Under the pieces are notes generated by a model, which searched no databases, was not told where the DNA came from, and saw nothing but the letters and a program-made list of their open reading frames with translations. Below, piece by piece: positions 23,583 through 25,093 of a stretch of 32,000 nt of DNA (positions within the stretch are counted from its first letter, which is position 1; each line of letters opens with the position of its first letter). Source of the stretch: Candidatus Pacearchaeota archaeon (GTDB lineage: Archaea; Nanobdellota; Nanobdellia; Pacearchaeales; UBA284); contig CP061211.1 in the NCBI GenBank assembly GCA_026016245.1, positions 300,001-332,000 on the forward strand, written 5' to 3'. The translations under genes were made by a program, and so were the position numbers.

Positions 23583-24185
23583 GTTTCTCCGACCCTACAA
23601 AGTGGGGTCGGATTGCGTCCGCAAAGTTTTTTTGGGCAAAATTACATCAAGAACGAAGTTCAATTAAGTTAAAAGAATAGGGGGCAAGAAGACTAAAAAT
23701 GTCTTAAATTAGCCAATGACATTCTTTCTCTATTTGTATCACATAGGGCAACATAATCGTCCAAATTCCCGCAATTTTTTGTAACTACTCTTGCTGTTTG
23801 CCTATCACACCAGTCTAGAATTGTAGTTTCGAAGGCTCTGTCATCATATCCGTGTTCGGAGACTGAATTTTCTAATCTACGTCTTAATTTAAATTGTTTT
23901 GCTGTAGAATGAACACATATCAAAGAGCCGAGAATATTAATACCTATTAAGAGTGGTTTGTCATAAGTAAAGGGAATTGGTCCAGCATTCATCAGAAAGA
24001 GGGTTTCACCTACAGGAGCAGTTCTATAAAAATCTGCAATATATTCCAATCCCGCTTTAATTTTCTCAATCATATAAATATTAGAAATGCTGGACTATTT
24101 AAAGGTTTTGATTATGTTATCTTTAAATAGTAGTAAATATTTCTTGCCCCATCTACTATTTTGCCCAAAAAAATTGAAACTAACA
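23578..24185. repeat. Gene-bracketing inverted repeats of cassette 11 (three nested pairs, including the R-box extension)
   Basis: TGTTAGTTTC (23578-23587) / GAAACTAACA (24176-24185), 10/10. TTTTTTTGGGCAAAAT (23627-23642) / ATTTTGCCCAAAAAAA (24158-24173), 16/16. GGGGCAAGAA (23681-23690) / TTCTTGCCCC (24141-24150), 10/10. Confidence 0.9.
23693..24073 (-). CDS. Hypothetical protein, 126 aa (cassette 11)
   Basis: Intact ORF with its own TATA-like box (the minus strand reads CTTTAAATAG at about 24095-24104); no recognisable motif. Confidence 0.5.
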   Translation of the reverse strand: MIEKIKAGLEYIADFYRTAPVGETLFLMNAGPIPFTYDKPLLIGINILGSLICVHSTAKQFKLRRRLENSVSEHGYDDRAFETTILDWCDRQTARVVTKNCGNLDDYVALCDTNRERMSLANLRHF

Positions 24186-24220
24186 CCTATTTCCCGAAGT
24201 AATATAGCGGGAAATAGTTA
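24182..24220 (+). repeat. Minimal attC-like site L (terminal site, next to the recombinase promoter)
   Basis: CTAA[CAC]CTATTTCCCG - AAGTAATATAG - CGGGAAATAG-TTAG. Perfect 10-bp stem (24187-24196 / 24208-24217), GAAGT at 24196-24200, GTTAG at 24217-24221. Confidence 0.7.
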
Positions 24221-24242
24221 GATATGATGAAAAGACGAAATG

Positions 24243-24250
24243 TTTAAATA
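24243..24250 (+). promoter_or_regulatory. TATA box of the recombinase gene
   Basis: TTTAAATA ends 22 nt upstream of ATG 24272 and begins 22 nt after the GTTAG of site L. Confidence 0.5.
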
Positions 24251-24271
24251 TTTCTTTAAGTAAGAAAAATC

Positions 24272-25093
24272 ATGGAAAAAGAGGGGAGTGAAGAAAAACA
24301 AAGGGGAGAAAACCAAGAACAAGAATATTTGATTGAAAAATTCCTTGAAGAGCTCAGATTAAGAAAATATTCTTCTCAGACAGAAAAATCTTATCTTAGA
24401 ATTATTAAGGAATTTTTAAAATCTGGTAAAACGTTAAGAGAATTTCTATTGGGTTATTCAAATAAAAGTAGATCTTATGTTAGAAGTGTTTATTTTGCCT
24501 TGAAATTTTTTTATGAAAATGCTCTTGATGAAAAATTTCAAGAGAAGATACCTCTTGTTAAAACAAAATTAAAATTACCAATTATTTTATCGAGAGAAGA
24601 AATTAAAAAAATGATAGATGTTACAGAAAATTTAAAACATAAAATTGTTTTAATGCTTCTTTATTATGCTGGTCTTCGTTTAGATGAAACAAGAAATTTA
24701 AGATGGAAAGATACAGATTTTGATAGGAAATTAATTCACGTTAAAAAAACTAAAGGAGAGAATGAAAGAATTGTGTTTTTGCATGATAATTTAAAAAAAT
24801 GTCTTGAAGTATATGGGATAAAATCAGAAGGTTTAATTTTAATCTCAGAAAGAAATAAAAAATATGATAAAAGAAGTATTCAACAGATAGTTAAAAAAGC
24901 TTCTGAGAAAGTAGGGATAAATAAAAAAGTAAGCCCCCATACTCTTAGACATAGTTTTGCTACGCATCTCTTAGAGGCTGGAGCTGATATAAGATATATA
25001 CAACATTTACTTGGTCATAAAAATTTACAGACAACACAAATTTATACACATGTAGCAAATAAAAATATTAAAAGATTAGCTAAACTATTATAA
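24272..25093 (+). CDS. xerA: Tyrosine recombinase, XerA/XerC/XerD type (273 aa)
   Basis: N-terminal SAM-like core-binding domain (YSSQTEKSYLRIIKEFL). Catalytic R136 (AGLRLDE), K (KKTKGENERIV), H223-x-x-R226 (HTLRHSFATHLL), H249 (LLGH) and Y258 (IYTHV). Only 87 residues separate R136 from H223, so there is no IntI-type insertion. Confidence 0.88.
   Translation: MEKEGSEEKQRGENQEQEYLIEKFLEELRLRKYSSQTEKSYLRIIKEFLKSGKTLREFLLGYSNKSRSYVRSVYFALKFFYENALDEKFQEKIPLVKTKLKLPIILSREEIKKMIDVTENLKHKIVLMLLYYAGLRLDETRNLRWKDTDFDRKLIHVKKTKGENERIVFLHDNLKKCLEVYGIKSEGLILISERNKKYDKRSIQQIVKKASEKVGINKKVSPHTLRHSFATHLLEAGADIRYIQHLLGHKNLQTTQIYTHVANKNIKRLAKLL

Follow-up and report, generated by a model that had tools for sequence, protein, structure and literature searches.

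A Xer-type recombinase gene and a dif-like hairpin site as a probable platform for integron-like gene cassettes in archaea

We analyzed a stretch of 32,000 nucleotides from a Candidatus Pacearchaeota genome (assembly GCA_026016245.1, contig CP061211.1, positions 300,001 to 332,000; hereafter the window, numbered from its first letter), in which an array of attC-like hairpin sites adjoins a tyrosine recombinase gene. Our findings indicate that a Xer-derived recombinase and a dif-like anchor site upstream of its gene probably run an integron-like cassette platform. Computational comparison of the window with related loci establishes the type of the enzyme, the conservation of the platform, its polarity, the position of the junction, and a natural turnover of the cassettes.

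The recombinase gene (24272-25093, + strand) encodes 273 amino acids, and we placed the protein using hidden Markov model (HMM) scores (Pfam, NCBIfam) and alignments to PDB structures. It matches Pfam PF00589 (Phage_integrase) with 1e-42 and carries the complete R-K-HxxR-H-Y set described in a sequence-only reading of this DNA (R136, lysines 158, 159, and 161, H223, R226, H249, and Y258), with R136 and H223 being 87 residues apart as that reading had counted. The top NCBIfam model is NF040815 XerA_Arch (211.2 bits; cut-off 220), followed by TIGR02249, the integron integrase model, which matches in two stretches with 180 bits (cut-off 265). Among known structures, the best matches are XerA from P. 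abyssi (4a8e, 5e-40) and XerA from T. acidophilum (5hxy, 1e-35), with which the protein aligns contiguously and from end to end. The alignment with VchIntIA (IntI4, 2a3v) is split into two blocks, in which residues 50-174 correspond to IntI4 45-173 and residues 199-265 to 243-309. Between these blocks there are 24 amino acids in our recombinase versus 69 in IntI4 (about 45 fewer), and the R-to-H distance is 87 versus 132. The TIGR02249 score below cut-off and the split IntI4 alignment both speak against membership in the IntI family. The enzyme is thus Xer-type and lacks the IntI-specific segment, as the sequence-only reading had proposed. Nowhere else in the window is a PF00589 protein encoded, not even at the left array boundary, where the same reading had seen no recombinase, and none of the relative loci that we fetched encodes a second tyrosine recombinase.

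Together with six relatives, the window protein scores in the range of 201-223 bits on NF040815, with integron integrase as the second model (168-200 bits) and XerD/XerC at 161-177 bits. The characterized XerAs reach 330 bits (P. abyssi) and 304 bits (T. acidophilum) and have XerD as the second model. Members of the clade share 60-74% identity across phyla, and at 50% clustering the next representatives are at most 51% identical to it. The clade may represent a distinct subfamily, possibly spread jointly with its anchor site; alternatively, the NF040815 model may be biased toward its seed sequences. The recombinase gene appears as at least two frame-shifted tblastn pieces on contigs L050, L052, L056, L057, L060, L063, L064, and L072 from metagenome-assembled genomes (MAGs), and these could be pseudogenes or assembly errors. 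One MAG, AUK182, contains two recombinase loci (L006 and L072).

Immediately upstream of the gene lies a short hairpin site, called site L in the sequence-only reading and the anchor site here (24173-24221, + strand), which is supported by its fold, by the conservation of homologous sites, and by a population breakpoint at one of these. Its left arm ATTGAAACTAA (24173-24183) is followed by the junction at 24183|24184, the spacer CACCTA, and then TTTCCCG. The hairpin is formed by the arms CTATTTCCCG (24187-24196) and CGGGAAATAG (24208-24217) and closed by CTAAC (24180-24184) pairing with GTTAG (24217-24221). As single-stranded DNA, the site folds with -9.7 kcal/mol (z = -5.9), and none of 200 shuffled sequences folds as well. 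A TATA-like box, TTTAAATA (24243-24250, + strand), begins 22 nt after position 24220 and precedes the ATG at 24272; the coordinates given earlier for site L, box, and start codon all agree with the sequence. At the position of this box relatives have AAAGCGAAnTTTTATATA, and both position and conservation suggest that TTTAAATA is a promoter element of the recombinase gene.

We fetched 73 loci encoding relatives of the recombinase for comparison. In more than 30 of them, a short-loop site of the same design as site L is located ~50-110 nt upstream of the gene (~105-142 nt before the equivalent of residue 20), directly preceding the conserved promoter-like motif AAAGCGAAnTTTTATATA. They represent MAGs of Woese-, Pace-, Aenigmat-, Micr-, and Nanoarchaeota, as well as DHVE2, Thermoplasmata, and MAGs labeled Methanosarcinales. 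The cultured Methermicoccus shengliensis has both the recombinase gene and the anchor site. Among 31 distinct anchor sites, the arms pair at 95% of positions compared with 75% for shuffled arms, and 0 of 1000 shuffles reach 95%, a count that is partly circular as right arms were picked as the best complement with at most two mismatches. Arm positions 6-8 covary (A-T, T-A, C-G, G-C). MAFFT misaligned the right arms because loop lengths differ, and the arms were instead anchored by script. Site L is thus a conserved partner of the recombinase gene and more than the last site of the array, as which the sequence-only reading had regarded it. In other genomes, sites of its class are fixed beside the gene, and the DNA to their left varies.

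The anchor has a dif-like core, and in site L the TAA-N6-TT pattern agrees with the archaeal dif hallmark. In the relatives, its left part reads ATTG-N5-TAA|CAMCTA|TTnnnCGnAGT, that is, TAA-N6-TTA with partly inverted 11-nt arms. By eye, 8 of 11 arm positions match in relatives (L016 type), which show ATTGATTTTAA-CAACTA-TTAAACGCAGT and have ATTG/CAGT outer arms around TAA-N6-TTA. TAA-N6-8-TTA is the most conserved feature of archaeal dif sites, the T. kodakarensis dif being TTTTGATATAA-TGTACC-TTATATGACAA, and Haloferax and Halobacterium have a dif-like sequence upstream of the xerA operon (PMC11840125). XerA cleaves dif at the spacer borders (PMC3646895), and in Thermococcales dif is not adjacent to xerA (PMC2958812). 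The anchor has no likeness to attI in its sequence.

Natural variation within and between populations locates the junction. Between genomes, site homology starts abruptly at TAAC yet extends 10-60 nt past TGTTA (two alignments). In a species with two loci encoding an identical recombinase (P0101; L111 and L116), both loci are the same from AAC|AACTATTAAGCG of the anchor through the gene and beyond, and the DNA left of the anchor AAC| is unrelated, with a cassette for an N6_N4 methyltransferase in one locus and for KwaA-KwaB in the other. The anchor is hence conserved beside the gene and cassettes are swapped precisely at its AAC|, as expected for a fixed insertion site. In a second species with identical recombinases (P0076; L074 and L075), the DNA downstream of the gene is 99.9% identical, and the loci are identical rightwards from the TAAC| of an internal site and unrelated leftwards. 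These alignments place the crossover at the left-hand (T)AA|C on the + strand, i.e. at G|TT on the - strand. As the discontinuities fall at the left-hand AA|C, the recombinase occupies the insertion end, where the first cassette lies, and diverges from the cassettes, which is the usual integron geometry. The sequence-only reading had taken the + strand to define the polarity, with crossover at the right-hand GTTA and the recombinase at the 'wrong' end; the mapped junctions contradict this polarity, and with it the wrong-end placement. Other guides to polarity were set aside. The extrahelical bases used for bacterial sites are ambiguous here, since the 2-3 nt bulge belongs to the left arm, while sites B and E have an additional base in their right L arm; the inverted repeats flanking cassettes cannot decide because they are symmetric; and the orientation of open reading frames (ORFs) is a weak guide.

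We found the layout of array plus recombinase in many archaea, which answers the synteny check that the sequence-only reading had called for. A BLASTN search with the 12 array sites of the window against the 73 loci gave 40 matches upstream of the recombinase gene and one downstream, in 2.6 times more downstream than upstream DNA, and all 41 share one orientation. A left-core profile, iterated three times with nhmmer (E <= 0.001), produced 60 matches, all of them upstream of the gene and on the + strand and none downstream. They stem from 16 independent genomes (14 genome loci, the P0076 species, and the window). By eye, a DHVE2 MAG and a Thermoplasmatales MAG also have attC-like sites and cassette-flanking inverted repeats upstream of the gene. 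Two site sequences are shared across lineages: window 20269-20365 is 94% identical over 97 nt to L063 8199-8295 in a MAG labeled Aenigmatarchaeota, and window 21154-21187 is 100% identical over 34 nt to L040 2025-2058 in a MAG labeled Methanosarcinales. This suggests a recent exchange of cassette sites between lineages. The cargo ORFs of the window array are not shared with any of the other recombinase loci (73 loci). In 32 of 72 loci, the contig ends within 300 nt upstream of the gene, compared with 2 of 72 downstream, a pattern to be expected from a strain-variable region at that point; the contigs of L011, L021, L025, and L029 begin inside the anchor site. A site-centered metagenome scan yielded 26 contigs, most of them short or truncated. 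On these comparisons, the adjacency of array and recombinase is not fortuitous. The sequence-only reading had allowed for a cluster of attC sites lacking an integrase (CALIN) that happens to end at xerA. Against this, at least 16 genomes have homologous, equally oriented sites upstream of the gene, and the profile never matches downstream. It had also suggested that xerA-smc synteny without any array would reveal chance adjacency. This cannot serve as a test because smc is not a conserved neighbor (1 of 73 loci); it is the site and the variable region that are conserved.

The array itself (12661-24172) comprises ~15 ORFs of small, unrelated genes and, in the spaces between genes, 12 co-oriented attC-like sites besides site L. 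Read on the + strand, these sites are A (12661-12729), B (13501-13634; fold z = -3.8), C (14187 to ~14263), D (15796-15902; z = -4.4), E (17157-17290), F (18092-18198), G (~18198-18308), H (20183-20318), I (21048-21142), J (21858-21958), K (22717-22799), and L2 (23429-23582). Their common plan is ATTG-N5-(T)AAC-A, a 2-3 nt spacer or bulge, an L arm, a loop of 40-110 nt, the complementary L arm, and TGTTA, with GCGATTAA and GGAATTTAACG as examples of L arms. Sites B, D, K, L2, and L display an attC-like R/L architecture with a 2-3 nt bulge. Several sites, such as B and D, fold much better than shuffled sequences, and others, such as E, do not. The left arm and TAA|CA are conserved throughout, and the spacers differ, reading CAMCTA in the anchor but CATNNG in the array; complementarity of the variable L arms is preserved over the long loops. 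No Rfam family matched in the 32-kb window. A generic search for AAC...GTT hairpins was dropped, as it gave 23 matches in the window versus 27-46 in shuffled sequences, and the loose expression ATT[GT]-N4-6-AAC was unspecific.

With 13 sites and no IntI in the 32-kb window, the array fits the description of a CALIN (at least two attC sites less than 4 kb apart and no IntI nearby). The term is a descriptive label and is compatible with a link to Xer. In 75 archaeal genomes, Ghaly et al. (2022) found 539 attCs, mostly in CALINs, but only six IntIs, a scarcity that was ascribed to fragmented assemblies (PMC9668308). There, attCs were called in other DPANN genomes with the IntegronFinder attC model, and the accessible Data S1 entries for Pace-, Woese-, SCGC-AAA011-G17, and Aenigmatarchaeota (ten DPANN genomes) list no IntI. 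The window array is thus of a known kind, an archaeal attC cluster resembling the published CALINs. What appears to be new is that such arrays are coupled, in a conserved and oriented manner, to a recombinase of the Xer type and a dif-like hairpin anchor, and that the junctions map to AA|C. In the full-text literature that we searched, whose coverage is incomplete, we found no paper linking XerA with attC arrays. A possible direct overlap, the CALIN listed for Pacearchaeota MAG J144 in PMC9668308, was discarded: it is on RFLC01000080 and the recombinase (L064) is on RFLC01000181, an overlap at the level of the genome only.

We envision the following mechanism. The recombinase gene and the short dif-like hairpin upstream of its promoter would form a fixed platform, next to which gene cassettes are inserted and exchanged, each cassette bringing one long imperfect hairpin site. 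The Xer-like enzyme is the likely catalyst, and the substrate would be folded single-stranded or cruciform DNA, the enzyme binding the R and L boxes of the folded strand or cruciform as well as the anchor site. Strand exchange would occur at (T)AA|C, the arm/spacer border at which archaeal XerA cleaves dif. Because the spacers differ between sites, probably a single strand pair is exchanged at TAA|C, and replication would then resolve the intermediate, in analogy to integrons and CTXphi/XerCD. The array would grow leftward from the anchor, with new DNA entering directly at the left side of the anchor body. The anchor site may double as the dif site of the chromosome. Among the three scenarios of the sequence-only reading, recruitment of a Xer-like enzyme to a hairpin-site cassette system best fits our comparative data.

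The system is a variation on the integron and IMEX (integrative mobile elements exploiting Xer) theme. As in integrons, the recombinase gene is divergent from the array and has a fixed insertion site beside it, AAC/GTT boxes and paired L boxes mark the imperfect hairpin site at the end of each cassette, the crossover maps to AA|C (G|TT on the other strand), the outer part of each site is complementary to the start of its cassette, and a variable cargo turns over in populations. Unlike in integrons, the enzyme has no IntI additional domain and finds its best model in XerA_Arch, in place of attI there is an anchor that is itself a short hairpin, built on a dif-like 11-6-11 core, the left arm (ATTG-N5-TAA) is conserved over a greater length, and cassettes can be multigenic (3-4 kb) with mixed gene orientation and probably their own promoters. 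Val et al. (2005) reportedly found that XerCD recombines the folded single-stranded attP of CTXphi with dif1 by one strand exchange. CTXphi and other IMEX share with our system a Xer-family enzyme and a dif-like target, an incoming site formed by pairing of two inverted dif-like halves, non-homologous spacers that imply a single strand exchange completed by replication, and a tandem accumulation of elements next to dif. Here, however, small gene cassettes rather than phages are the cargo, the hairpin design is repeated a dozen times, one recombinase stands in place of XerC plus XerD, and the target lies beside the recombinase gene. The Acinetobacter pdif modules (PMC7399989) are likewise gene modules bounded by Xer-type sites, those of XerC/XerD, and presumably moved by the host Xer, but pdif sites are plain 28-bp duplexes whose orientation alternates along plasmids, and they are not known to include hairpin sites, an anchor by the xer gene, or a co-oriented array. 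Archaeal XerA/dif and XerS/difSL also use a single Xer-type recombinase, with a site immediately upstream of its gene in XerS/difSL and at the haloarchaeal xerA operon, and XerA/dif in addition has a TAA-N6-8-TTA core cleaved at the spacer border. Cassette arrays are not known from these dif sites, and the characterized XerAs score 304-330 bits on NF040815 where this clade scores 201-223.

Several observations weigh against the cassette platform proposed here. The IntI segment absent from this enzyme is needed in bacteria to recognize folded attC. The recombinase falls just under the XerA_Arch cut-off and ~100 bits below both characterized XerAs, and because of this its housekeeping role is uncertain. 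By eye, the window anchor makes a weak dif: it reads TAA-N6-TTT, and its outer arms match at only 4 of 11 positions. Degenerate or chimeric sites occur in the array (C, G, H, and I). In the P0076 species, the gene-proximal cassettes are stable and the variation is internal or distal. ORF orientation is mixed, with 11 of 15 ORFs on the - strand in the window and a more mixed pattern in L074, and some cassettes of relatives are 3-4 kb long with several genes, in contrast to classical integron cassettes. Finally, the action of the enzyme on anchor and array sites is deduced from sequence and must be regarded as putative.

A first alternative, which we consider unlikely, is that the anchor is simply the chromosomal dif, the enzyme the housekeeping XerA, and the cassettes independent elements of the IMEX type that integrate as duplex DNA, with the hairpin potential of the sites being incidental or serving a role outside recombination. 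Indeed, the cassettes encode no recombinase, their ends have dif-like cores, and the junctions lie at a dif-like anchor, all as in IMEX, with Xer as the presumed catalyst. The TAA-N6-TTA core matches dif, on the - strand the right ends of array sites also read TAA-N6-TTA when their sequences are inspected, the cassettes can be large and multigenic, and haloarchaeal xerA operons have dif-like sites upstream (PMC11840125). Yet a site used only as duplex has no need of arm complementarity, whereas the L arms vary from site to site and stay complementary across loops of 40-110 nt, and the anchor hairpin covaries. The different spacers (CAMCTA versus CATNNG) argue against a complete two-strand exchange, and the clade ranks well below the characterized XerAs on the XerA model.

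Less probable still is that the sites are ordinary attCs served in trans by a true IntI, encoded elsewhere in the same genome or supplied by other cells, with the Xer-like gene a mere neighbor of a CALIN. This would account for the attC-like R/L architecture, and our survey of tyrosine recombinases covered the 32-kb window of a 710,724-bp contig; moreover, archaeal IntIs exist, and bacterial IntI1 recombines archaeal attCs (PMC9668308). It would leave unexplained, however, that at least 16 genomes repeat this adjacency and orientation relative to the Xer-like gene without profile matches downstream, that the anchor is conserved with the gene even where neighboring genes differ, and that cassettes swap exactly at the anchor; Data S1, as far as accessible, counts 0 IntI for the ten DPANN genomes (PMC9668308). 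We give very little credence to the idea that the repeats are intergenic structural or regulatory elements (terminators, or repeats similar to repetitive extragenic palindromes) in a variable island that by chance lies beside a recombinase gene. Sites E (z = -0.7) and K (z = -1.95) do fold no better than shuffled sequences, and further conserved hairpins and motifs accompany the sites. But such elements would not be expected to show sharp homology breakpoints at AAC| within and between populations, a strictly constant orientation relative to the recombinase gene, a dif-like core, or different cargo behind shared sites that are up to 94% identical between a Pacearchaeota and an Aenigmatarchaeota genome.

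IntI is the defining enzyme of integrons, and presumably it is the extra domain that enables it to use folded attC. Extending our interpretation beyond the window, we lean, by a narrower margin of confidence, toward a Xer-derived clade in DPANN archaea, Thermoplasmatota, Methanosarcinales-related genomes, and Methermicoccus shengliensis that forms, with its dif-like hairpin anchor, an integron-analogous capture platform without the IntI domain. If this is true, a Xer-type enzyme beside a dif-like anchor would be a concrete answer to the missing-integrase problem of archaeal attC clusters, hairpin-site cassette capture would have arisen from (or before) Xer/dif more than once, and the proposed evolutionary link between Xer/dif and integrons would gain a living intermediate or analog. 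The assembly breaks beside the recombinase gene in many archaeal MAGs would be explained. The platform would be a collector of defense genes (Kiwa, restriction-modification, toxin-antitoxin) in genome-reduced archaea, and a compact site-specific cassette system would be open to study in a cultured host candidate, M. shengliensis.

With regard to the contents of the array, the products of its ORFs include PNPOx, DUF5655, Mrr-like, M48 peptidase, isochorismatase-like, UDG, HD, and AAA_33 kinase proteins. Defense-type cargo in the window and its relatives comprises KwaA-KwaB (Kiwa), an N6_N4 methyltransferase, PemK/MazE, NTase/HEPN, and an Mrr-like nuclease (L116 1462-2929, L111 4396-5436, L074 5339-5916, L075 4028-6283, and window 16082-17089). 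The first cassette, adjoining the anchor site, spans 23627-24173 and encodes on the - strand a 126-amino acid ORF (23693-24073) for which no family match was found. It is flanked by the inverted repeats TTTTTTTGGGCAAAA (23627-23641) and TTTTGCCCAAAAAAA (24159-24173); a further cassette-flanking pair is 15947-15960 with 17137-17150. Between this ORF and the anchor site there is an inverted repeat, ACTATTTAAAG-N16-CTTTAAATAGT (24094-24131), whose arms resemble the anchor arms (CTATTnnnCG) and also back-to-back TATA boxes. Core genes flank the array, with an RsmB/F methyltransferase (11083-12147) on the left and the recombinase and an SMC-like ATPase on the right. According to our junction model, the distal boundary is probably AATGTTTCAGAA|C (12652-12664, + strand), a degenerate ATTG-N5-TAA|C left arm. 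The SMC_N-family ATPase downstream of the recombinase gene (25127-27532, + strand; Pfam SMC_N 5e-63) has 801 amino acids, fewer than a typical Smc, and is outside the cassette system.

Several additional elements accompany the sites. The left halves of sites A (12664-12708) and I (21052-21096) are near-identical and diverge in mid-loop, and the left end of site I has TACC in place of GAAC, possibly marking a chimeric or decayed site. Sites A, D, and L2 have in common a ~40-nt extension past TGTTAG (12735-12773, 15908-15946, and 23588-23626) with covarying hairpin stems (TTTTCCCA/TGGGAAAA, TCCGACCC/GGGTCGGA, TTTTACCC/GGGGTAAAA) and a mini-hairpin TTGCGTCCGCAA; the same element occurs in L028 and L074. 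An 'S' element, GTTCTATCAA...GCGATACATCAAGAAC (5'-GTTCT...AGAAC-3'), is situated between some sites and an AAGGGG... inverted repeat downstream of it (window 14260-14294, 15961-15996, and 22031-22068; L032 6053, L074 7055, and L099), and it is kept across genomes in a single orientation. At the F/G junction, a composite unit (18184-18247) consists of an L' arm, R' (ATGTTAG), the mini-hairpin GTGCGAAGCAT, ~25 nt, and an L'' arm complementary to the preceding L', so that the arm order is reversed with respect to the normal one. Such a unit is located just upstream of the anchor in L010, L033, L044, L007, L040, L088, L111, and L116. Sites F and G are wholly overlapped by a 90-amino acid ORF starting with TTG (18062-18334), which is probably no gene. 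Many cassettes of relatives carry a G-rich motif, GGG[CT]GGGTGGTCGGGGG, in constant orientation ~30-95 nt before the ATT..TAAC junction (L007 386, L039 3575, L040 4508, L049 8129, L074 4862 and 6753, L088 3433, L098, and L107), which is absent from the window. Farther to the left, the window shows a local G+C minimum of 0.20 (versus ~0.32 elsewhere) at 10001-11000, over the ORFs 9792-10454 and 10451-11086. At 8268-9299 this apparent DPANN archaeon encodes a GAF-GGDEF protein (diguanylate cyclase); to our knowledge, genes for cyclic di-GMP signaling are uncommon in archaea.

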